Assembly (NCBI GenBank): GCA_951406725.2
Contig: OX597827.1
Location: 50,096,001-50,160,000, forward strand
DNA: 64,000 nucleotides
Source: Octopus vulgaris
Lineage: Eukaryota
Reading direction: 5' to 3'
Both the position numbers and the translations under genes were made by a program. Each line of letters begins with the position of its first letter. Positions within the stretch are counted from its first letter, which is position 1. Below the pieces are notes generated by a model. That model was not told the origin of the DNA. It ran no database searches and was given only the letters and a program-made list of their open reading frames with translations. This document shows positions 839-50,085 of this stretch, piece by piece.

Positions 839-1650
839 TAAAAACGGTAAGATAACAAAAGAAAGAAAGAGACCTCAATATTATGTAAACAGAGCAAATT
901 TATCTGTAAAATAATATGTGACAATTATTCAATAGCCACGATAAAACTCTGAGTTTCGGATGCCGAGGTGGAAATCCACAACACCATCTCTTCGGTTATC
1001 TCATATTTTGAGGATGCAATTTCCTCGTAAGGGATTGATAATAACAATCCAAATGCCAACTGACTTTATCAATAAATGGAAAGAAAGTTCCTCAATATAT
1101 ATGTATAAACAGTCTAATTAATTATAAAGTTAACAAAAGAAAATGGAGGAGAAAAAATGTAGCAGCTACTTGGTTACATTTGTCTTTATCCCATCTTCCT
1201 CCCATAAACTTTTATAAATATATTATAAATATATTTTTCAAACGCATTTGATGTTTTAGCAATATTTCAACGATCAATATTAGCTAAATTTCAACGATCA
1301 ATATCTGATCACATGAACTCCGCGTCCTAATAAGCTGTTTACATTCGAAATTTTCTAACCACAGTCACCAAATTAGTTACTTCGTAATTCAAGATCGGAA
1401 AATATACTTACTTTTCTCTGAAGATACCCGGCAATATATGGTTTATTACATCTATAATTGTTCGAATGTGGATGATTCAAACATACCGTGGGATCGAAAC
1501 ATGTGTAGGATGTTTTTTCGGATTAGTTTGGTTGTTTTGTTGATCCGGTTCTTTTTATCCTTATTCTTATCGGTATCACTTTTACTTTGCATTACTTTTC
1601 CGTTGTGACACAAATAAAATGAACCAAGTATCTATTATATTTTTCTTCTC
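836..1650 (-). mobile_element. Decayed Penelope-like element terminal region between (TA)n and (TATC)n tracts
   Basis: Contains a hammerhead-like fold at 940-1000 and abuts (TA)n like other PLE ends here; no intact ORF. Confidence 0.5.
940..1000 (-). ncRNA. Type I hammerhead-ribozyme-like motif (CCGAAGA core variant)
   Basis: Minus strand reads GATAA-CCGAAGA-GATGGTGTTGTGGATTTCCACCTCGGCATC-C-GAAA-CTCAGAG-TT-TTATC; stem I GATAA/TTATC, GUU cleavage triplet. Confidence 0.65.
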
Positions 1651-5813: not shown

Positions 5814-5861
5814 GATATAAATAAATATTTAGCTATAAATACAAGGATATATAAAATATAC

Positions 5862-6092
5862 CTTTAAGTTGATAACTGCTCCATCTTGAGTTTTTTGCTT
5901 CAAGATTTAATTGAGAAAACGTCAGATTACTCAAGAGACACAATCCATCTGTTTGGCAAAAGGTAAATGATGAACACAGTGCTTGTTTCAGACAAAATAA
6001 TTTGCATTCCTGTTGAGTGGAGTAGAATCTCTGGGTCGAGTATTTTTCGGCAAATGAAGCGCCCAAAATAGACATAATTTTTTCTTTGTTGT
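5862..6092 (-). CDS. Exon 3 of the PAN-domain gene: PAN/apple module 2
   Basis: Acceptor ttcttttataacctag, donor GTATAT, 231 nt, phase 1-1; ECKLFCLKQALCSSFTFCQTDGLCLLS gives the C-x3-C-x5-C-x-S-F...C-x-L PAN pattern. Confidence 0.85.
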
Positions 6093-6495
6093 CTAGGTTA
6101 TAAAAGAAATGTTTATTTAAAAAAAAATGTTTTCATAAAATATAACTTTAATTTCTATACGTTTTTCAAAGCAATAGTTTATAAGCTAATAACAAGTCAA
6201 GCTGGAAATAGATAAAACAATTTCATTTAATTAAGTCGATGTAATTTAATAAGCAAAGAGGCTGGTCCATTCTTTCATAATTTAGTCTGAACAGAATGCT
6301 GTTGCTGTGAGTGATACTCACAGGTTAGCCTCAATCGAGCAAATCTATGACTAAAGTTATTCCAGCCATAAATCACCCAAATTTTAGAGGTTTCTCAGAA
6401 GGAAAGGTGTTAAGGGATATTGTGGCTGTTAGTTTTAGAAAATCAACTTGTCGGCTCATGAGTTTGGGAACAGTGCTTTTCCTATTCTTCTAGAC

Positions 6496-6696
6496 CAGTG
6501 CTTTTCAAACTTTTTGCTGGAGCAGAACCCCAAGAAAACATTCCACTGGTTCGAGGAACCCCTGTGCAATAATTTAATAGTCTTATGCACACATATCTGC
6601 ACAGGAGACTTTAAAATTACTGCCGATTTTAGCAGTTTTGTAACTTCTTGCGGAACCCCTGGACTGTACTGGCGGAACCCTGGTTGAAAACCACTG
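6496..6696. mobile_element. hAT (Charlie-type) MITE
   Basis: TIRs CAGTGCTTTTCAA / TTGAAAACCACTG; 8-bp TSD TTCTAGAC / CTCTAGAC (NTCTAGAN target). Confidence 0.88.
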
Positions 6697-7194
6697 CTCT
6701 AGACTAAGTAACTTGAACGCATGGAAATCGACATCTTGTTCAGTACTTAGAATAGTTGTTGAATTTGTTCTGGAATACAATTTTCTGTTATCTTTACCTT
6801 TTTGTTGTCATAGTATTACATACAATACAATAAAGTGTCGAAAATGTCCACTGTCCAACTTCGACCTGCTCACTAACAACATACCGCTGCATCCAATGAA
6901 TGTTTGTCTTAAGTTTTAGCGAAGCAATATCACTGCACTACATTTGACATCAATTATTGTATTCACCATACACTCCTTTCAAGCGTACAGAAATTAACTT
7001 TACTTTGACATCAATTCTTTAAGGTGAATCAGCAAAAAAAAATGCATTTAAGCATGCACACCTCCGCACGTATGTATACATGCACATGCATATCTGTATG
7101 TATGTATGTATATATATATATATATATGAATTTTTTGTGTAATGAGATAAAAAAAACAAGGCTGTATAGATATTAGAGCATTTATAGATAGAAG

Positions 7195-7253
7195 GTCTTA
7201 CAGCTGTTTCTAGAATATTAATTAATAGTAATTAATATCCCTTCATCGGAGAC
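7195..7253 (-). ncRNA. Type I minimal hammerhead-ribozyme-like motif (CCGATGA core variant)
   Basis: Minus strand GTCT-CCGATGA-A-GGGATATTAATTA-CTAT-TAATTAATATTCT-A-GAAA-C-AGCT-G-TA-AGAC: stem I, 13-bp stem II, palindromic stem III, GUA triplet. Confidence 0.8.
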
Positions 7254-7401
7254 GGTGTGAGAGGAAAAATTAAGTCATAGTTAGTTTCGATGTGATATAA
7301 ATAGAGAGTGAGGTGGAGGACAGAAAATAGATGTAAGATATGTATGGGTATTGAGTTCATAAATCTGTTTTATAGGCATAATGGTATATATGTGTATTAT
7401 T

Positions 7402-7636
7402 AAAGGCGGCGAGCTGGCAGAAACGTTAGCACGCCGGGCGAAATGCTTAGCGGTATTTCGTCTGCGTTACGTTGTGAGTTCAAATTCCGCCGAGGTCGAC
7501 TTTGCCTTTCATCCTTTCGGGGTCGATAAATTAAGTACCAGTTACGCACTGGGGTCGATGTAATCGACTTAATACCTATGTCTGTCCTTGTTTGTCCCCT
7601 CTGTGTTTAGCCCCTTGTGGGTAATAAAGAAATAGA
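7402..7636 (+). mobile_element. SINE family A (GGCGGCGAGCTGGCAGAAACG...) with 17-bp TSD
   Basis: B box GAGTTCAAATTCC, body GCCTTTCATCCTTTCGGGGTCGATAAATTAAGTACCAG; TSD TATATATGTGTATTATT at 7385-7401 and 7637-7653; related copies near 9850, 13660, 22483, 25447, 38664, 54480. Confidence 0.9.
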
Positions 7637-7789
7637 TATATATGTGTATTATTCCAAAGTCCGTTGAGTAAAATCCAAAAGTCCCACAGAGTTTAATATG
7701 AGTCCATCCAATGTAAAGTTAATAAGCAATGTAAGCTTCTCTTAAAGTTGGTCCTTCCCAGTAGGGAATTTATATAGAATGTAGCATAC

Positions 7790-9620
7790 CTTTATTTTCG
7801 AGGCGGTGGGAGAGAGACGGGAGGAGGAGATGAGGTCATGGATAGTGGAGGACAGTCTGTTGATAGTAGGCGTGGGTTGGTGGGAAGAGGGCAATAGAAG
7901 GAGGTGTCTTGAAGTTGGCGGAGAGCTTCAGCTTTGAAGAGGCCTGCACGCCACACCACCACGGCTCTACCCTTGTTAGCCGGTTTTATGATGATGTCTT
8001 TGCGGTGTTGGAGACATCGGTAGGCTGGGAGTTTGGCCGAGGAGATTTTAAAATGTCAGGGACACCAACGAAAGTTAAACCGGTCCACAACACGTTGGCA
8101 GATGCTTGCAAAAGGATTGACTGCTTGGAACTGGCCTGGTGCTGGTGTCCGGTGGGATGGTCGCCGGCCCAGGTCGGTGAAGCAGTCCTCTTCTTTAGAT
8201 GCAGGTGGAGTGTTGTTGAATAGTGCATATAGTCTGACGCGATGCACAAAGCTATGAATATCAGCACGGGTCTGAAATTCGTTACTAGATAGAGTGAAGA
8301 AGATGAAGCACAGACCCTTACTAAGAAGAGAGCGCACCGCCTCAGAGAGGAGAAGAACAATAGACTGAAGTGGGTAGGATGGATGAATTAGATGTGGGAA
8401 GGGTGGTAGGGGTAGTGGAAGGCTGGGAGGCAGTGGAAGGCTGGGAGAAGCGAGAGGAAGAGTAACTGCATGGGAGGGTTGGATTAACGGAAGGGTTGGG
8501 GCGACGATGAGGGGGAGTGTATCAGGGACGAAGGGGTAGAGGAGGGGGTGTATGTAGTGGTATGGGGTGTGTCAGAATGAAGGAGTGAGTAGAGTTTATG
8601 TTGTTTAGTACGAGGGAGTTACTCATGGAAAAGATGATTTAAATTGATTATAAAGCTTAGAGTGGAATGTGCAAAGGAAGGTGAAAGACAGGAGAAAAAG
8701 GTGGAATAAGCGAGAGGGAGAAGGCGGTCGAGGGTGTGTATTTTGGAGAGATTAGAACGCATGGTGGCAACGCATAAGCAACGCCTGAGAAAGGAAACGC
8801 GTTTAGAGAATCGTCTTTTTTTGAAAATCAGTAGGGAAAGATTAATAGAGTGTTGAAACTTGCGGAAAGAATGCGTGAAAAGGTGTTTCTTTAGGCGGTA
8901 GAGAAGATGGAAGAGGAGAGATTTGCAATCGGGCTGTCTGGAAAAAAGGAGAAAAAAGAAAAAGAAAAAGAAGTAAAGGAGAGAGAAAGGCAAAGTAATG
9001 ATATACGGAGTATAAAAGTTCAAAAAATTCAAAAGTCGTGAAGAGCAGAAAAAAAGAAGAAAGAAGAGAAAAGGAGAAGAAAAGAAGAAAAGACGAAGAG
9101 AAGAAGAAGAAAAGGAGAGAGAAAGGTAAAGTAACAAAGTTCAAAAAAGTTCAGGCGTCGTGGTATGTTGGAGCGATTTTTCTTCAACGTGAAATTCGTA
9201 AGTATATCCAGTGGTAAATCGGGTGGAGTGTTGGTAAGTAGATGAGAGGTGCAAAATGTTCAGGCAGTAGTTGAGATATGTAGGTCCAAAGAGAAGGAAG
9301 TTAAAGCAGGATAAAACTGGGGTGTCGACTGTGAGCGTATAATATATAGTTAAAATTTACAGAAAAACAAAAGACGAAGACAGGTGTATAAACAACAAGC
9401 GTGTTAGTTTGACGCTCGGGAAAGTGAGAAAGTCTTTTACGATTCAACCAACGCTTTTCAACAGAAAGGAACACGAGGAAATAAACAGAAAGAGAATAAA
9501 AATTTAAAAAAAACGTGTGGATTTAGCGATCAAGCATGGCGACTGGTTTGGAAAAAAATTTGAGAGGGGAGGTACAAAGAAGGGGAGATAATAAAGTATT
9601 GGTGATCCCAAGACGAAGTT
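7790..9620 (-). mobile_element. Penelope-like retroelement, 5' part (pLTR plus N-terminal ORF), decayed
   Basis: Minus-strand peptides SLLSKGLCF...FVHRVRLYALF and DIIIKPANKGRAVVVW (the PLE IKPADKGxxVV motif before RT); hammerhead remnant at 9434-9468. Confidence 0.8.
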
Positions 9621-10092
9621 GAGCGTGCGTGTGTATGTATGTGAGAGTGTGTGTCGAATTTAATAATTAGATAACTTAATAGGTCTAATAAAATTTGTCT
9701 CAATTTAATACATGAATATAAATACAGAAAGGTTTTCAATAGACATACAATTAAGATTGCTTTATAGTTTCATCCTTAATAGGAATTACATTACATAAGC
9801 CTAATCCAACTATTGTACAGCATGCTCACTGAATGGATCATTATTTATCTAGCGGTATTTCATCTACCTTTATGTTCTGTGTTCAAATTTCTCCGGGGTC
9901 GACTTTGCCTTTCATCCTTTCTGAGTCGATAAATTAAGAACCTGTTGCGTACTGGGGTCGATCTAATTGACTAATTTCAGGCCTTGCGCCTAGAGTAGAA
10001 AAGACTATTCATCTAATGGTACAGACAAATACATACATAGGCAGATAGACAGCTCTGTAAAGTCAAGGAGGGATTGGATTAAGCTTACTTAC

Positions 10093-10344
10093 ATTTAATA
10101 AGTTGGTAATAGTTATAACCATTTACTGGTACCAAAGATTCAGTTGCGGCACTTGTTGGATATATCATACATTGATTCAATACTTCGTTGAAAACAAATG
10201 AGTGACATGTCGACCAACTCAGACACCAGCTTGCACAAGCACTACTATAAGTACCAGTGATATTAATTTCAGTGATTGTTTGAGATTCACTGCTAGATAA
10301 CTTTGCAGATTGTACTTCAATAAACCATTGTCCAAGTTGATAAC
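10093..10344 (-). CDS. Exon 2 of the PAN-domain gene: PAN/apple module 1
   Basis: Acceptor tttttgcag, donor GTAAGT, 252 nt, phase 1-1; YQLGQWFIEVQSAKLS...ACASWCLSWSTCHSFVFNEVLNQCMIYPTS...GYNYYQLIK. Confidence 0.88.
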
Positions 10345-10780
10345 CTGCAAAAAATTAGTTATATTAAAGATCAGAAGAAATAGCTTTTTTTCCTCTTTTT
10401 AGTTGAATATAAAGGTACTCAAAAACTTAGTAACTGGTGAGAAAAGTAATTTAGCTGTCATTGAAGGCTAACGGATAAAAGTCTTCTAAAACACTTTAAG
10501 ATAATTCTTTTCGTGGGAGAGTTCAACATTAGTCTTCTAAATCATAACATTAATAAAAACAACTGCATTCAGAAACCTTGTACAGCTAAATTTATTCCTT
10601 CCGCATGTACTGCAGCATATTATTAGCATAAAGCAATTGTTGATATTGAATTATATTAGTGCAAGCATCAATAGATGGATTCCAAATAACCTTAAGCTAT
10701 AGGAAATTGTAAAGTATTTAAAATATACACAGCACTAAATTTACTTAATAGCATTTATTAAAATTACTACATAGTAAGTA

Positions 10781-20739: not shown

Positions 20740-22065
20740 TTCTTGGCACAGGAAGAAATACTACTAAGGGAACATAAAGGATGTAGGAAGAGTTGTAAGA
20801 GTATCAAGGATCACTTGGTCATCGATAAAACAGTTTTGAGTCATTGAAAAAACATCATACAAACATGTCTGTGGCTTGGATTGACTTTAAGAAGGCATAT
20901 GATATGATACTTCATTCTTGAATCGTTGAATGCTTGCAGATGTTTGGTGTTACTGACAACACCACAAATTTTCTAATGCATAGCATGGAAGAGTGGAAAA
21001 CCAAATTGTACTCAAGTAACGTATTTCTTGGAGAAGTTAATATTAAAAGAGGAATCTTCCAAGGTGACTCGTTTTCTCCCTTACTATTTGTAATTGCACG
21101 AATATCCAGAACAATGACACTTGAGAAAGAAAGGCCCATCATTGAACCATCTTTTGTTTATGGATGACCTGAAATTGTTTGGGAATGTGAAAATAGATAG
21201 ATTCCTTAACCAAAACAGTCCAGAAGTGTGGTAGGGATATTGGTATGGAATTTGGGATTACTAAATGTTCAGTGCTTAATAAGAAAAGAGGAAAGAAAGA
21301 CTCCTGCAGGAGATTGCGGTTACCATCAGGAGAGACCATGGATGAACCCGACGGTAGTGTGTATAGATATCTAGGGATTTTGGAGCTGGATGACAATCTA
21401 CACAGATAAGTGAAAATGAAGGCCAGTGAGGCATATCAAAAAACGATGAAGATGGTGTTGAAATCCAACCTGAATGCCAAAACTTTGGTTACGACAATGA
21501 ATATCTGGGCAGTTACCGTGGTCAGATATAGTGCGTCCATTTTCAAATGGACTAAGGAGGAAATATCAACACTGGATAGAAGGACGAGAAAGTTGATGAC
21601 GCTGCATGGGGCGCTACACCCTAAAGCAAACGTAAACAGATTGTATATGAAAAGAAATAATGGTGGCAGAGGACTAATTAGTCTAGAACATTGGATAAGG
21701 AGTGAAAGGAGAACGCTTACCGAGTATTTGATTTAATAGTGATGAAGACCTGCTGAAATACGCTGCGCAAGATATGGGTGTAAATGCAGATGAAATGGTG
21801 GGCAAGGAAGAGTTTAATCAAAGAGCTGAGAAGAGAAAAGAAGACCTTGAAATGAGAATGCATAGACAGTTTGAAAGGAATACATAGGACGTTAAGCATC
21901 GTGGGCATGGCTTGAGCGAGGTGATTTGAAGCGTACCACCGAAAGCCTGATCATTGCTGCACAAGACCAGGCTCTCGCTACCATTTCAGTGAAGTATAAT
22001 ATCTGTAAAACTTCCGACACCCAGAAATGCAGACACTGTGGAAAGAGCGTGGAAAATGTGACAGG
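20740..22065 (+). mobile_element. R4/Dong-like LINE RT-to-zinc-knuckle fragment (pseudogenised)
   Basis: AWIDFKKAYD, KRGIFQGDSFSPLLF, HLLFMDDLKL, YRYLGILE, LHPKANVNRLYMKRNNGGRGL, ESLIIAAQDQAL, CRHC; stops and frameshifts present. Confidence 0.9.
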
Positions 22066-22850
22066 GAAGATGTGCGAAGTGGAGGGACTGGATTGGGGTC
22101 GCCGGAAGGCTCGGAGAATGGTGCGTTGGATGAGTAGGATGGAAGAGTGGTAGGTAAGGGGAAACGGAGACGGGTAAGGGTGGGGCAGGTACGAGGAGAC
22201 AGAGCAGATCGTGCCCGGGAAAGAGTAGTGTGGATAATGGTGAGGCAATATCCATGTAGGATGAAGTGGCCAGCCATGAGTTGAGATTGAGTCTCAAAGC
22301 CATAGTTGTCGCTGCAGAGCCTGCGTAGAGGGGGGAATTGGGAGTAGGGGATGGAGAGCTTGATGTGGGTAGGGTGGGAGGAAGAGAAGTTAAAGTAGGC
22401 GTGGGAGTCAGTGCATTTGAAGTGGATGAAGGTGGTGAGAGCGGAGCGGTGTATGCTGACAGAAATGTTGAAAATGTTGAAAAAGGCGGCGAGCTGGCAG
22501 AAACGTTAGCACGCCAGACGAAATGCTTAGCGGTATTTCGTCTGCCGTTACGTTCTGAGTTCAAATTCACCGAGTCGACTTTACCTTTCATCCTTTCGGG
22601 GTCGATAAATTAAGTACTAGTTACGCACTGGGGTCGATGTAATCGACTTAAACCGTCTGCCTGTCCTTGTTTTTCCCCTCTATGTTTAGCCCCTTGTTTA
22701 GAGATCGTGCAGGAGCATTCGAGGGCAGGATGGAAGGATTGAACAAAGGGGAGGAAGGAGTCCAGATTTTTGCGGGAGAGTGAGGTCGCGCCGATATAGC
22801 CATCGATATAACGACCCTATAGCTCGGGAGTGGGACCAGTGAATTGTATG
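22066..22850 (-). mobile_element. Penelope-like RT/thumb fragment interrupted by a SINE
   Basis: Minus-strand GRYIDG (RYIDD-like) near 22810 and MAGHFILHGY (F..RGY motif); SINE A inserted at 22483-22698. Confidence 0.7.
22483..22698 (+). mobile_element. SINE family A copy
   Basis: Near-identical to 7402-7636. Confidence 0.9.
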
Positions 22851-24244
22851 TATATATACATGTATGTTTATTCATTAAGAATTAGTATTAACTTAAAATA
22901 ACCATCTGTGAATCATACTTGATACAAAGGCATCATTGACAAACAACAGCTCTTATGGACTTGTTGTGTTTAAAACATTATATATTGATGAGGGAGACAA
23001 ATATCATCCCAGTAGCGACCAATGAGAACGTCAGATGCATTTCGGTCAATGGAGACTTATCAACGACATGTAGTCACAAGCAGCAACATGCCTAGACACG
23101 ATTTGTCACCGCCAACATACAGGCAAGAGTGAATTCAATATTCGATGGTATTACGAATAACCGCCCGGTGGAATAGAAATACGTTAGGTATGTGGCTGGT
23201 AGTGCGTGCACGTCACTTATTAGGTCGAAATAAACCGAAATGCCTCTACCGTTCGTTCAAGACACTACTATGACAATTTTCGTCTCTCTCCGATATATGG
23301 TGTCATTTTTAAATGCAGCATATTCATAAAATATGTTATCTCAGGGCGAGGACTGTAACTTACCTTTCAACGATATTTACGTTAAATATTATTTATAGAT
23401 GCCCCCCTCCTCTCAGTTTGTCTATCTGTCTCCATATCTCTCTTATATATCTATATATGTATACATACACGCATATATAAATACATACATGTATAAATAC
23501 ACACATGCACTCACGCACGCGAGCACGCACATATACGCATATATATATTCATGCATGCATGTATATATATGTGCGTGTTTGTTTTCGTCTATCTCCCCAT
23601 GCATCATTCAAGCCACCTTGATTTGCCTGTTTACGTAACTATCAAATTAAACATATCTCTATTTATCGATCAGTACACCCATCCATTCTATCCATCTGTG
23701 CCATCTATTCATCCATTTAATCAATAAAGCAATTATAAATCGCATGTCTCAATTCTTGTGTGTATAGTATGATATATCATAGAATGACTTGTAATGCTTT
23801 AAAAATATTTTTCTCCAGAGGCATAAGCAATGTCATGAAATCACTTGGTTACTATTGTGCTCCAATTTCATTTCATAACTGCAAACCCGTGTATAATTTT
23901 CGTATTAATGTCACCTAAAATATAATCAATATCAATACCTTATTCAGTAGCATGCAGTTTTCAGCACCAATTAATCGACACAAAAGTAGAGTACTTAAAT
24001 AATTCGTCGTAGATTAACATTCATGTAATAAATATGATGTAATATGATATAACAAACACCTCTGTTTATCTTTTTCTCCGTACTGAAGACATCGTACCAG
24101 ATGAAAATTGTAATTAAGCAAAAAATAAGGCTTCAGTTGTTGAAACGAAAGGAAAATCTAAACTAAGTAAACAATATAAGTAATACACATTTCATTTCTT
24201 TTACTTCACTAACGATAATATATGGATTCTTAGTAAGGCATATA

Positions 24245-26420: not shown

Positions 26421-26455
26421 GTTTCTGATAAAGAGCTCCGCTCGAAACGTTAAAT
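26421..26455 (+). ncRNA. Minimal hammerhead-like motif with a G8A change, in a short PLE-type terminal repeat
   Basis: GTTT-CTGATAA-A-GAGC-TCC-GCTC-GAAAC-GTT-AAAT; the downstream ~85 bp matches 24626-24694. Confidence 0.65.
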
Positions 26456-29739: not shown

Positions 29740-30430
29740 TCCCGTATTTGTCTGATAGTTGGGCCTTTTAGGTACTTGGATAAATGCGGATGTCAAGTTG
29801 ACCCAAGTTGTCTCCATGTTGGTCTTTGGCATGTTGGTAGAGTATGGAGAAATGTTTTTTGTCTTCATATTTTCTCAGATGTTCATTTAGTCATTCCGCA
29901 ATGCTCCTAAATGTCTCCCATATGTATGTCATGTTCATGTCTTTACAAGCACCTTAGTTGTGATATGATGGAGTTCTCTGGCTTTTTAACAATCTTAACA
30001 TTGAGTTTGACCTCCTTCAGAGCTTTTCTAAATCTACGGGCTACTTCTCCATGGGCTGTGGCCTCTACAAACATTACTCCTTGATATTTGTCAGTTTTGT
30101 ACCACGTGTTCACTCTGTTTGCTTTGTCACAAGTTCTTTGTATCCTATTCCATTCTTTGTTTCTATATCTAGGCCAGGTACCACTGGTATCATTATGTAT
30201 AATGTTATCTAATTTCTTTCTAGCCCACCTATATACTCGAACCCTATCTTTCAGATCATACCCAGAGAACTGCATGCGGTGCATGAAGTTCTGTATATGT
30301 TTTTCCGTTTCATAAGGTTCGCATAGTGGAGATATATTGTTCATTATTCTAACTAAGTTTGCTATCAGTGTGTTAATTTTCATGTTGTGTGGCAAAGCTG
30401 AGTTCTTGTGAACAACATATTTTGAAGTTG
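29740..30430 (-). mobile_element. Penelope-like element, thumb/linker/GIY-YIG fragment
   Basis: ORF 29943-30395 (MPHNMKINTL...MQFSGY...RYRNKEW...VMFVEAT) followed by TYIWETFRS..LNEH (YIGET-like). Confidence 0.7.
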
Positions 30431-30540
30431 AGGAACTGCACTCTATTGTTCCTCACAGTCTCTAACCAAGTTTTAAGAAATAATATGGCCATATTATATC
30501 CAAGATTTTAAAGGTTTTCTTCTGTTATAAAGTCTGCATT

Positions 30541-42699: not shown

Positions 42700-43720
42700 T
42701 ATTACAAATGAAAGACAGAAGATGGAATATACAAGAATTTATTGTTAAATACGACAATTGTTTCGACACATCTAGCATCGATCCCTCTTGAGTGGGACAC
42801 TCAACAACTAGTTCAGGAGCATCCGGTAGTGCAGATGCATCTTGTAAGGTGATAAATAAATAAAAACAACTCGTTAAAATGACTATTCCACAATGTAGCT
42901 TACCGTTTTGTAGAGAGAAAAACAGCTAGACGGAGGAAAAACCTTCATATATATAGAAGATCAAAAATAAAATTGCGGATGACAAAAAGAGAAACGATCA
43001 CGTAATCCAGCGAGAAAAGTATTCAAAATAACCATTAACAGATATGAATGTATAAACGCCCTCGGGCAAGCTGCATAGCACGAGTACACATGCTCACACA
43101 AGCATCATCAAAATGTGAGCATACGCACACGCGAGGTTTGGTGCACTCCTGATCACAAAAGGAGCTAGTTATTTACTTGGTGTTTATAAGAATGGGGAGG
43201 TTAAAAATGAACGTAAGTCATCCATACCTTAAAGTAAATTAAATTACATTAAGTTAACGGTTACTCAAAGTTCATTCTCACTGCATTGTGCAAAAATACA
43301 TTTATATGAATGCAGGCATCTCGATAGTCGTTCAGAAATTCTATTAAGTATCTTCTCGTTAGTCTACAGAATAGACAGGTTTCCTCGGAGCTGTGACGGC
43401 ATCTCCTGGAGATTATATTGTATGGTTTTGCATGTCTAATTATGGACCAATTAATGTTGTGCTTCGTTTTACTTTCCTTCACTCGCCATATAAAACCTGC
43501 CAAAGATGTTGAATGTTTCTTATTGACTGACTTAAAGCTGGCAACATGGTTACGATAACGATTCTTAAATGAATCAGCTGTCTGCCCATTGTAAACAGGG
43601 CCCTCCCCCTTGTGTGCACGGTACATTTATATATAAGCTTTGTACACATACAGAAATTTATCAAAGGACATTTTGATTTATTTCTGCATGAGCATTTATC
43701 GTATTTATTTGTATATAAGG
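42700..43720 (-). mobile_element. Penelope-like element 3' part (GIY-YIG plus pLTR with a hammerhead remnant)
   Basis: CSCRNKSKCPL..FCMCTKLIYKCTV / VYNGQTADSFKNRYRNH..SF...STSLAGFIW...INWSII; hammerhead-like fold at 42748-42853. Confidence 0.85.
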
Positions 43721-44199
43721 CAGTTCCGACTCCATTTATCGGCTTTGTTATCGTGCTAGCTGTACTTTGAGTATTTCTACTGCTACAAATTGGTCGAAGC
43801 TGATATTTATCAATGCGGTCATTTTTGATAACACTTAAATGAAGATCCTCTTTTCCATTCAAGTTGGGGAATGTAACTTTGGCCTAGAACTGATTTCATT
43901 AGACGCAATCCAACGATCATCTGATATTTCGAGCCCTCGAACGTAACACCTTCCCGTTTTCGCCTCAAATCTCCCCTCTTGCTCTGTAACCAACAAGAGC
44001 ATCTTTCTGCTGCCTCTCCCATTTCAGGCACAGATAACTTTTGCTCTCTTCCTCTCGTTCCAATACTATTGATCCTTCTCCATTTGACTGTGCCGGGAGT
44101 CCCCAACAGCTAACTTCCACTTAGAATATCCATGATTGCCGTCCTTAGAATATCCGTGGTTGCAACTATAGAATATTCATGATTGCCGTCCTTCCTGCA

Positions 44200-46599: not shown

Positions 46600-49500
46600 C
46601 CATTAATGCCATTGCTCAACCAATTCTGAACGATCTTGTCAGGTCAGGTCTGTTGTATGCAGCATCGGATCCTACTACTGGTAAACTGTAAACCAGTACA
46701 ACCTGTGTCAGTGGGGTAGAAAGGGCTCCTTAGCCGTAGTGAATGCAACCTATCTAGGGAGATAACCTTACAATAAATCACTCAGCCCGTAGCTTAGAAG
46801 TACTGGGTTGACGTCCAGCGGGAACAGCTTTGTTTCATGGAGGAGGAAAGATCTTCTTTAGTACTTGGTTGTACAATGCTTTCCAATGTGTGTAGTAGTG
46901 GCGCGCGCACACATTATTAGCCATTTGAAAAGACTATGGAATTTACAATTAACTGCACCAGGGTTCCTCTTCCCCAGGGAACCAGACCTAATGGTATACC
47001 TGCGGATGTAGGTCCAGCCCCTGCTTTGCCGGGTCCTGTCTCTGATCATGTTGCACCTCCAAGGGCATCCATTGACGGTGATGCCCTCAATCTTAACAGA
47101 CGGGTATCACCTGATGGAGAAGAGTCAGCCCCCAACCAAACAACACCAAACAAACACCTCATCAGCTGTAAAAATCATACGATACTCAGCACCCTCAATG
47201 CCCGAACCCTCGGCTCTCTTGGCCGTCTAGAAGAACTTGGTGCAAATGCAGAATCACATGGCATTGATATAATAGCTGTCCAAGAACACCGATTTTACCA
47301 CCCTGACAACATCCTCAAATACCATCAAGTCGGTTCTTATCAACTTGTAACCTCCTCAGCATCAAAGAATACTGTTAATTCAACAGTTGGAGGTATCGGA
47401 TTTCTACTTTCATCAAAGGCTAGTGATACTCTCTTGAGTATAGAGTCAATCTCACCTAGAATTATGGTGCTTGAGATAGATGGAAACCCAAAAACAACAT
47501 TGGTATGTGTGTATAGCCCACATAATTCGTCTGTGGCAGACGAAATTGAAAATTTCTATACAACCCTTCGTTCAACCATTGAGCAAGTACCTCTCCATAA
47601 TTTTCTGGTTATAGCTGGTGATCTGAATGCTAGACTAGGACCCGATGAGACCAAGTTTACTTTCAACTCTAAAACCAATCGGAACGGAGAAATGCTCAAA
47701 GACTTCTTGGAGGAATTTAATTTCTACACCTCCAACAATTCTTTTATGAAACCAAAAGGTCAACTTTGGACATTTGAGTCCCCACTTGGTGATAGGGCAC
47801 AAATTGACTACCTCATCTTTCGAAAGAAATGGCGCAATAGTGTTAAGGACTCGAGATCCTACTCATCCTTTAGTTCTGTCGGCTCTGACCACAGAATTGT
47901 ATCAGCTACCGTTAAGCTTAGTCTTCGCTCATCCAAAAAAACTAAGCCTCACCCGATCAAAATGATCGACTGGGAGGAAGTCTTATCTAACCCCGATATG
48001 TCCAAACAATTTACTATTGAGGTCTATAACAAATTTCAATCTCTGTCTACTTCTGAAATAGATGCTGAGAACATTGAGGAAGTATACAGCAGCCTCATCA
48101 AATCAACAGAGGAAGTTGCACTGGCTGCTCTTCCCAAAAGGAAGAGTAGGGGCCAGAGCAAACCTTCTAATTCCCCAAATGTCATCGAAGCCAGAAACCA
48201 TCTAAAGTCTACATCACTAGCTTACCACCGTTCTCCATCCCAGTCACTGAAGATCCAACTCATAGCTGCCAGGAAGAATCTTGATGAGGCTTACTTGAAC
48301 GCCGAGGTCGAATTTATCAATGGCAAAATTAGTAAACTATCGAAAGAGCACATTAGTAAAAAACACCATCTCGCCTGGAAATCCATCAAAGACCTATCAG
48401 GCAAAAATTCTGGGTCATCAATTAGAATTAAAGGGGGATCAGCTAAGAAGCGTTTAGAAAATTGGTCAACCCATTTTAAAAACCTCCTTGGGAAGAATGC
48501 CAAAATCCCTGATAACCCCACTCTCCCAAGTGTGCCTATATCAGACACGCTGGACATCAACACCTCCCCTTTTACCATATTTGAATTAACAGCAGCCACC
48601 AAGCAACTAAAAGCCTCGAAAGCATTTGGTCCCGACAACATTCCGGCTGTGATTTGGAAGGATGATAGATTTCACACACTTTTGCTTAACCTCTGCAACC
48701 ACACACTTTCCACCTTTGTCGCTCCAAAGATTTGGCACCAGTCTCAAATCATTCCAATACCCAAAAAAGGCGATTTGTCCCTCGTCACCAACTACAGGGG
48801 CATATCTCTAATGTCAATTGCTGCAAAACTGTACAACAAACTGATCCTAAATCGTCTTGTCCTTTTTGTTGAACCTTTGCTCCGAAAGAACCAAAATGGA
48901 TTCAGACATGGGCGCTCAACGCTGAGCCAGATACTATGCCTGCGCAGACTTATTGAAGAATCAAAAGCATTTAATCGCGATCTTGCAATGGTATTTGTAG
49001 ACTTTTCTAAAGCGTTCGATTCTGTAGATAGGTGCAAGATGTTTGAAATCCTTAAGCTCTATGGGATACCAGACAAAATTATTTCTGCCATCAAGGTCCT
49101 CTACACAGATACGTCTTCAACCATCTTAACCCCTGATGGAGAAACATCATCTTTCTCGATCGAGGCCGGAATACTGCAGGGAGACACACTCGCCCCATTT
49201 CTTTTCATCATTGTTGTTGATTATGTGCTACGTATGTCAGTTGATACCATCTCTGGCAAGGGCTTTGAAATAAAACCAAGAAGAAGTTCCAGACACCCAG
49301 CTGAGTACTTGACAGACACTGACTTTGCTGACGACATCGCTCTTATCAGTGATTCTCTCTCCAATGCCCAGTCTCTTTTACAATCTCTTGAACAAGCCTC
49401 AAATTGTGTAGGTCTTTACCTTAATGAGACCAAAACTGAATACATAAACAAGTGCCTGTCCAACAGTGATTGCATCATCCACACTCTCAACAGTGCACCT

Positions 49501-50085
49501 TTAAATATGGTTTCTGATTATAAATATCTTGGGTCATACATATCATCATCTGGAAAAGACTTTCTAACTAGAAAGGGTATGGCCTGGTCAGCCTGTAATG
49601 ACATGCATAAGATCTGGTCATCAAATCTAAGTAGAGACTTCAAACTTGAAATATTCAAAGCCACAGTCGAACCAATCCTACTATATGGCTCAGAAACCTG
49701 GACGTTATCAAAGAAGCTTGAGAGGCGGTTGGATGGAACCTACACTCGCCTCCTTATGAGAGCTCAAAATCTCTCGTGGAGGCGCCATCCAACTAAAATG
49801 CAAATATATGGGAAATTACCACCTGTGTCATCTTTTGTGAAGGGTAGGAGAGTCCAGTTTGCTGGACATTGTTGTAGAGCTGAAAAAGAAGTAATTTCTA
49901 CTCTTCTCCTCTGGAAGCCATCTACTCGCAACACCAGAGGGCGCACACTCTCCTACCCTGATGTAATCTCCAGGGATACAGGCATCCAGCAACAGGACCT
50001 CCGTAATGCTATGATGGACCGTGAAGTCTGGCGCAACATGGTAAATTCCATTGTCTCGACCACGGTCGAACAATGATGATGATGA
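46600..50085 (+). mobile_element. Full-length-looking RTE-clade LINE with a (TGA)n tail
   Basis: Single long ORF, short tandem-repeat tail TGATGATGATGA at the stop; 5' UTR resembles the fragment at 5443-5512; 5' boundary uncertain. Confidence 0.9.
46936..50076 (+). CDS. LINE ORF: apurinic-like endonuclease plus reverse transcriptase (1046 aa, uninterrupted)
   Basis: APE motifs TLNAR, VQEHR, AGDLNA, IDYL, SDHR; RT motifs NYRGISL, FVDFSKAFDS, GILQGDTLAPFLF, DFADD, YKYLGS; RTE C-terminus LLYGSETW, FAGHCCR, DREVWR. Confidence 0.95.
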   Translation: MEFTINCTRVPLPQGTRPNGIPADVGPAPALPGPVSDHVAPPRASIDGDALNLNRRVSPDGEESAPNQTTPNKHLISCKNHTILSTLNARTLGSLGRLEELGANAESHGIDIIAVQEHRFYHPDNILKYHQVGSYQLVTSSASKNTVNSTVGGIGFLLSSKASDTLLSIESISPRIMVLEIDGNPKTTLVCVYSPHNSSVADEIENFYTTLRSTIEQVPLHNFLVIAGDLNARLGPDETKFTFNSKTNRNGEMLKDFLEEFNFYTSNNSFMKPKGQLWTFESPLGDRAQIDYLIFRKKWRNSVKDSRSYSSFSSVGSDHRIVSATVKLSLRSSKKTKPHPIKMIDWEEVLSNPDMSKQFTIEVYNKFQSLSTSEIDAENIEEVYSSLIKSTEEVALAALPKRKSRGQSKPSNSPNVIEARNHLKSTSLAYHRSPSQSLKIQLIAARKNLDEAYLNAEVEFINGKISKLSKEHISKKHHLAWKSIKDLSGKNSGSSIRIKGGSAKKRLENWSTHFKNLLGKNAKIPDNPTLPSVPISDTLDINTSPFTIFELTAATKQLKASKAFGPDNIPAVIWKDDRFHTLLLNLCNHTLSTFVAPKIWHQSQIIPIPKKGDLSLVTNYRGISLMSIAAKLYNKLILNRLVLFVEPLLRKNQNGFRHGRSTLSQILCLRRLIEESKAFNRDLAMVFVDFSKAFDSVDRCKMFEILKLYGIPDKIISAIKVLYTDTSSTILTPDGETSSFSIEAGILQGDTLAPFLFIIVVDYVLRMSVDTISGKGFEIKPRRSSRHPAEYLTDTDFADDIALISDSLSNAQSLLQSLEQASNCVGLYLNETKTEYINKCLSNSDCIIHTLNSAPLNMVSDYKYLGSYISSSGKDFLTRKGMAWSACNDMHKIWSSNLSRDFKLEIFKATVEPILLYGSETWTLSKKLERRLDGTYTRLLMRAQNLSWRRHPTKMQIYGKLPPVSSFVKGRRVQFAGHCCRAEKEVISTLLLWKPSTRNTRGRTLSYPDVISRDTGIQQQDLRNAMMDREVWRNMVNSIVSTTVEQ

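Follow-up and report, generated by a model that had tools for sequence, protein, structure and literature searches.

The window, by which we mean the whole 64-kb stretch of octopus DNA that was analysed, holds on its minus strand a short gene with two PAN/apple domains, and inside one of its introns lies the 3' end of a Penelope-like element (PLE) that carries a hammerhead motif with C instead of U at core position 4 (C4). The features that matter for the analysis are the following:

5861-6092 and 10093-10346, minus strand: exons of the short gene with two PAN/apple domains, Pfam PAN_1 in both
6093-10092, minus strand: spliced GT-AG intron of this gene, 4,000 nt, with the motif in sense direction
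7109-7127: (TA)n tract, 3' end of the element and likely its insertion target
7128-7401, minus strand: 3' part of the PLE tail with the motif, ending at the (TA)n tract
7402-7636: later insertion of a multi-copy short repeat, 235 nt, with a 17-nt target duplication (7385-7401 and 7637-7653)
7637-7786, minus strand: remaining, 5' part of that tail, with the 5' truncation of the copy near 7786
7790-9620, minus strand: frameshifted fragment of a different PLE-like element, with a DKG-type motif by eye, ending before the reverse transcriptase core; no Pfam match
940-1000, minus strand: second C4 hammerhead motif, core CCGAAGA, in an unrelated repeat family

Contigs from two of four runs (two studies, with RNA status guessed) join position 6092 to 10093, and the CT..AC ends correspond to GT-AG on the minus strand; the spliced contigs are about 1 kb long in two studies and show neither ends nor strand. 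The preliminary description had placed the motif in the sense direction of intron 2 of the PAN gene. The sense position stands, with PAN_1 exons on both sides and spliced contigs across it, while the ordinal has to be loosened to at least the second intron, there being 190 letters further upstream in the contig.

The fragment at 7790-9620 had been described as a PLE open reading frame with the motif 3' of it on the same strand. It is frameshifted, its longest stop-free stretches being 133-173 aa, and when it was compared by blastn and tblastx with three long copies of the parent element no similarity was seen. As a candidate parent it was rejected, since it gave short scattered matches in 29 other loci, none of which continues the tail, and is unlike the three long copies. 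Pfam scans of seven fragments from the window gave no match. Other PLE-like coding fragments were recognised by eye at 21892-22609, 29943-30452 and 43261-43883 (all on the minus strand; no Pfam match in the pieces scanned), the last of which has the look of a Hydra-type linker and endonuclease. On the plus strand, an unbroken frame of 1,051 aa spans 46921-50076; by eye it shows endonuclease and reverse transcriptase motifs, and it probably belongs to a young LINE.

The element carrying the motif

The motif sits in a 261-nt stretch that recurs as a dispersed repeat, with 2,094 candidates, the best 40 of which are 92-95% identical, and exact matching gave 950 flank-anchored (control 2) and 1,626 3'-anchored matches (control 0). 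The window copy spans about 7128-7786 and is interrupted by the 235-nt insertion, which may be a SINE. Most of its relatives share the 3' end at (TA)n, and the adjacency to such a tract noted earlier is right, the tract lying at about 7109-7127, some 65 nt beyond the motif. Six relatives (L006, L007, L012, L015, L025 and L029) share about 130 nt extra beyond the usual (TA)n, followed by a second end, and the family has two 3' ends. Some copies (L012, L025-L027) have a long stretch of pyrimidines in the 3' untranslated part of the element, roughly 350 nt upstream of the motif; it ends in TTTCTAG and resembles a 3' splice site.

The motif is situated in the terminal repeat or 3' end of a PLE, with the parent reading frame upstream in the sense direction. 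Three long parent copies (L124-L126) have a reverse transcriptase followed by a C-terminal GIY-YIG, both read by eye in the translations; Pfam on pieces of these copies gave GIY-YIG only at E 0.02 and no reverse transcriptase. Also by eye, they have a CxCX5C linker and CxxC plus CxH around a conserved E and N, and CCHH is absent. All three are 5'-truncated before the DKT/RWK region, and two of them have an inverted copy of the tail at the 5' end. Judged from these letters, the parent is likely a PLE of the Hydra clade. In the sections of Craig et al. 2021 (PMC8557442) that treat this clade we find the same C-terminal GIY-YIG, CxCX5C and CxxC/CxH around E and N, the same insertion at (TA)n, a 3' hammerhead in sense, and 5'-truncated copies with inverted partners. 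Non-LTR retrozymes consist of tandem short non-coding units with one hammerhead each, unlike the window motif, and we rejected a tandem partner or a retrozyme because the window has a single copy and the long copies run on into a reverse transcriptase-endonuclease reading frame.

The hammerhead motif

The motif is read on the minus strand from 7253 to 7195 and has the shape of a minimal type I hammerhead with a C4 core. Its parts, all on the minus strand, are:

7253-7250: stem I GUCU, 4 bp, pairing with AGAC 3' of A17
7249-7243: core CCGAUGA, C4 being position 7248
7211-7242: stem II with flanking unpaired A's (7242 and 7211), first pair G·U
7241-7212: stem II helix, 13 bp with two G·U pairs and a 4-nt loop
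7210-7207: GAAA, preceded by the extra A at 7211
7207-7200: palindrome ACAGCUGU, 8 nt, predicted intermolecular stem III
7199: A17, followed by AGAC; predicted GUA cleavage site
7199/7198 junction: predicted cut, after GUA

The minus-strand letters from 7253 to 7195 and a descriptor match both confirm the earlier claim of three helices and an intact GUA site. The descriptor (core CYGANGA, at least 4, 7 and 2 in stems I, II and III) matched once within the 64-kb window and in none of 60 block-wise dinucleotide shuffles, by which a chance fold was ruled out. Among the 150 listed of 172 Rfam matches (E<=5) hammerhead families were absent. With a relaxed descriptor there are two weaker hammerhead-like matches, at about 26421-26455 (plus strand) and 23028-23069 (minus strand) of the window, both with A8 and one with U3-A8.

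Canonical consensus is followed at C3, G5, A6, G8, A9, G12, A13, A14, A15.1-U16.1 and H17, all of which are retained in the subfamily majorities. The canonical U4 is C4, in the window copy and as a state of its family, and the motif is therefore classed as a variant and not as a member of the consensus; searches for CUGANGA would, as had been pointed out, miss the CCGAUGA core. Moreover, the G10.1-C11.1 pair adjoining G12 is in the window's family replaced by G·U plus an extra purine before G12, which together with its neighbour reads TA in 38 and TG in 17 of 61 scorable copies. Stem II does have the 13 bp given in the preliminary description, which left out the extra A before G12 and the G·U pair at 10.1-11.1; this length is private to the window copy (0 of the 29 nearest copies, the family stem II being 7-9 bp), and with it goes the special standing as the best-formed copy.

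A PLE minimal hammerhead is expected to have a short stem I, a long stem II, one extra base following A9 and a palindromic stem III, and the window motif has them all; the CUGANGA core with G10.1-C11.1 is found in older sister subfamilies and is absent from the window's. The PLE-type identity that had been proposed is supported. The motifs of Cervera and de la Pena 2014 (PMC4209133) are, as far as the text and supplement rows compared go, likewise type I with a short stem I, a long stem II, an unpaired base between 9 and 10.1 and a palindromic stem III, occur as dispersed truncated copies and are predicted to cleave as dimers. They differ in having U4 in all 44 supplement rows compared, for which the descriptor required U4 (two begin UUGA), in the conserved G10.1-C11.1 that is G·U in the octopus motif, and in the extra A before GAAA, which only one entry of their GAAA column has. 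Small PLE variants of Lunse, Weinberg and Breaker 2017, as summarised in PMC6765202, share the short palindromic stem III, the PLE link and the cleavage as dimers. In File S2 of PMC8557442 stem II is flanked in many Hydra motifs by one additional base at each side, frequently U·U where the octopus has A·A or A·G, and all 26 Hydra rows have CUGA, under a descriptor that again required U4; the motif of the octopus family described there, Hydra-1_Obim, differs from that of the window.

C4 as a family state

C4 is a family state and not decay. Exact patterns for the window's family gave 699 matches with C4 versus 142 with U4, and in 98 copies chosen by a downstream 3' anchor, 61 of which could be scored, core positions 4-5 read CG in 39, TG in 11, CA in 10 and CC in 1. 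These counts rule out that C4 arose by decay of the window copy. A non-core CpG a few bases upstream gives a similar tally (CG 39, TG 9, CA 8, other 5 in 61 copies), and the U4 copies within the window's family are therefore CpG decay; U4 is there no commoner than G5A, which would ruin the core. Copies depart from their subfamily majority by 2.3% in the core and 2.9% in the 3' flank, with a collection pattern that favours intact cores, and hence the decay of inserted copies is close to neutral. Homologous copies do retain core and stems, and the loss of conservation that the preliminary description had named as counting against its reading did not appear.

Samples were drawn in contig order and comprised the first 98 out of 1,626 matches, the first 30 out of 42, and 93 from among the first 100 out of 236. 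Subfamilies were taken from a clustering of 197 copies; the sister families were collected with hammerhead-shaped patterns, and their conservation is in part built in. The older subfamilies have U4 (6/6 and 14/16 copies) with G10.1-C11.1 and lie 8.5-11% from their own majority, a mixed subfamily at 9% has C4 in 4 of 8 copies, and three younger ones at 4-6%, with the window's among the youngest, have C4 with G·U. Sister U4 subfamilies have the G-C pair plus the extra A. In a tree blind to positions 4-5 the C4 subfamilies group together at 98/96 (midpoint root, bootstrap not settled).

Recurrence in other families

The second C4 motif of the window, at 940-1000, belongs to a repeat family with at least 842 candidates. 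Its window-like subfamily reads CG in 28, CA in 3, TG in 3 and CT in 1 of 35 motif copies, the loci having been picked for likeness to the window copy, and the sisters of this subfamily have TG, i.e. U4, in 13 of 15. One locus of the family holds an endonuclease that is related at the protein level. Many copies of this family begin just upstream of stem I and are arranged as short inverted pairs.

A third family, with 173 matches, reads CCG in 8, CCA in 7, CTG in 14 and CTA in 1 of 30 loci, so that a large share of the family seems to go back to a C4 ancestor. Outside the motif it has no blastn similarity to the first family, and three stem pairs differ on both sides between the two; these double-sided changes represent one lineage split, and as 222 of 500 shuffles reach the same pair count they are statistically weak. 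The third family (L307-L336) is older. It shares stem III and the extra A with the first, has a loop II of 40 nt and compensatory changes in stems I and II, and shows what looks like a further helix of 6 bp that lengthens stem I; no coding region turned up for it.

Position 4 is altered in three families, a number that counts C4-bearing families, of which the first and third may share one gain of C4, while the other invariant core positions are unchanged in the majority sequences. Since position 4 is the only invariant core position seen to change, with the remaining core and the stem pairing kept, U4C would seem to be tolerated although weakening. A much wider reading would be that CCGANGA is a recurrent working core in the PLEs of this genome, fixed separately in at least two and probably three families, with thousands of slow, dimer-only ribozymes and with 5' ends of truncated copies that record the cut; we put this forward tentatively, as a possibility that we would not expect to hold in full.

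Folding and cleavage

The three-way junction with stems I-III is present in the models, and stem III is predicted to be stable only between two molecules. The palindrome described earlier is there (8 nt, ACAGCUGU), but the isolated 59-mer disfavours stem III, with a pair probability of about 0.08. The ACAGCUGU duplex is worth -11.1 kcal/mol, and the predicted homodimer of the bare 59-mer is a double hammerhead (-33.5 versus 2 x -9.9 kcal/mol), which upholds the dimer logic of the preliminary description and fits the model of dimer cleavage for PLE motifs given in the relevant parts of PMC4209133 and PMC6765202. With native flanks of 10-80 nt the active stem I has a probability of at most 0.04, and with flanks of 40-80 nt the stem III of the dimer is lost as well.

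The motif is probably, in our judgement, the 3'-end minimal hammerhead of a PLE family, likely of the Hydra clade, in whose master copies U4→C was acquired and fixed. Two such motifs would make stem III from their ACAGCUGU palindromes and would be cut after GUA, as a slow ribozyme that acts only as a dimer and serves the transcripts of the element, and the lone truncated copy in the intron is likely inert. Most templates would be reverse-copied uncut, as the element needs in order to transmit the motif; the whole motif is retained in 66 of 98 copies, from which it follows that most templates were copied uncut. What counts against this explanation is that G10.1-C11.1 is lost to G·U besides U4C, so that two weakening changes are stacked. 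According to the parts of PMC4209133 that deal with activity, a canonical core does not save PLE motifs from poor cleavage in vitro. A known parallel is the natural U4C variant of a viroid hammerhead, cited in PMC3088659 from Ambros and Flores 1998, which has the same core change and, as it is summarised there, much reduced activity in vitro, enough activity in vivo and continued infectivity. Perreault et al. 2011 suggest in the same paper that tertiary contacts offset core defects in the viroid hammerhead. The viroid U4C is a rare variant there, whereas the octopus C4 has become fixed in retroelement subfamilies that amplify, within a minimal motif in which we see no tertiary contacts.

Another explanation, which we regard as rather unlikely but worth weighing, is that U4C killed the ribozyme and that the C4 subfamilies spread since cleavage is dispensable for PLE mobility, the motif being a hitch-hiking relic or a structural signal. 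A mutational scan of another hammerhead reports, in the results given in PMC9901934, that mutants of the CUGA turn have little activity, and Naiad PLEs are described in PMC8557442 as thriving without canonical motifs, in line with such a loss. The competing folds with flanks and the G·U at 10.1-11.1 agree with it as well, and since the C4 subfamilies differ little, their intact cores may merely reflect short time. Against this stand the change of position 4 in three families whose majority sequences keep the other invariant core positions, the persistence of the CpG formed by C4 over at least three successive subfamilies, and the third family, which is older and has retained its core and stems along with C4.

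Cutting might also have left its mark on the 5' ends of truncated copies. We scored at-risk C4 arms whose furthest 5' extent falls within 2 nt of the predicted cut and obtained 9 of 116, versus 1.95 expected; hand curation removed four (both arms of a hairpin with its centre at +4, a hairpin that had been mis-aligned and an internal deletion) and left 5 (Poisson about 0.05, calculated by hand), and the arm-end script misplaced at least two arms that do fit the cut site. The 5' ends of C4 arms are broadly enriched from -10 to +14, and in the U4 sister 2 of 88 end at the cut, versus 2.4 expected. Fold-back inversion or stalling of the reverse transcriptase explains this pattern equally well as cutting does. 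Tiny head-to-head insertions that fold back close to, or exactly at, the predicted cut or the stem III palindrome were seen at six loci (L218, L246, L256, L260, L272 and L299).

A further explanation is that C4 was selected, either because a ribozyme that cuts more slowly leaves more templates at full length for reverse transcription or because the A·A or A·G pair by G12 compensates, which would make the motifs tuned active ribozymes. The recurrence in three families and the C4 state of the youngest sampled subfamilies of the window's lineage agree with this, as does the number of C4 ends (9 raw and 5 curated, where about 2 are expected). T→C transitions are however common, and tolerance alone accounts for the recurrence; large U4 families are abundant too, and the U4 sister shows no excess of ends. 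The same extra A is already found in U4 sisters, so it did not arise together with C4. We consider selection for C4 improbable.

With regard to the window copy itself, no partner motif of the same family was found in the 64-kb window, the intron is spliced, and the active stem I has hardly any probability with flanks; for these reasons a role in the host pre-mRNA is unlikely. That the host has co-opted the copy to cut the PAN pre-mRNA would accord with its sense position in a spliced intron, its longer stem II and a core that is the same as that of the family, but only this copy has the longer stem, splicing of the gene passes over the motif, the active fold is disfavoured in context, and the cores of family copies decay about as their flanks do (2.3% versus 2.9%, with a pattern that favours intact cores), and we find co-option very improbable.

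Architecture, location and dimer logic are thus known from other PLEs, and U4C fixed in retroelement families is apparently new. Our search of the literature on U4C, CCGAUGA, CCGANGA and octopus hammerheads found no report of it, a result that does not establish absence from print; PMC4191386, PMC6155905, PMC7229834 and bioRxiv 10.64898/2026.07.22.740005 yielded nothing on C4. The single intronic copy matters little, and the value lies in the family-level pattern of matched U4 and C4 subfamilies. The role of hammerheads in PLEs is called unclear in the pertinent section of Craig 2021 (PMC8557442), and natural subfamilies from a single lineage, matched as U4 and C4, are a ready test of it. Should the C4 versions prove dead, PLEs can move without cleavage; should they cut, both the core consensus and the descriptors used in searches would have to be widened, and such genomes hold more ribozymes than have been counted.

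Using a loose canonical-type pattern we also obtained 5,693 matches (control 75), part of the listing (L157-L186) being dominated by a big U4 family with a 40-nt motif.
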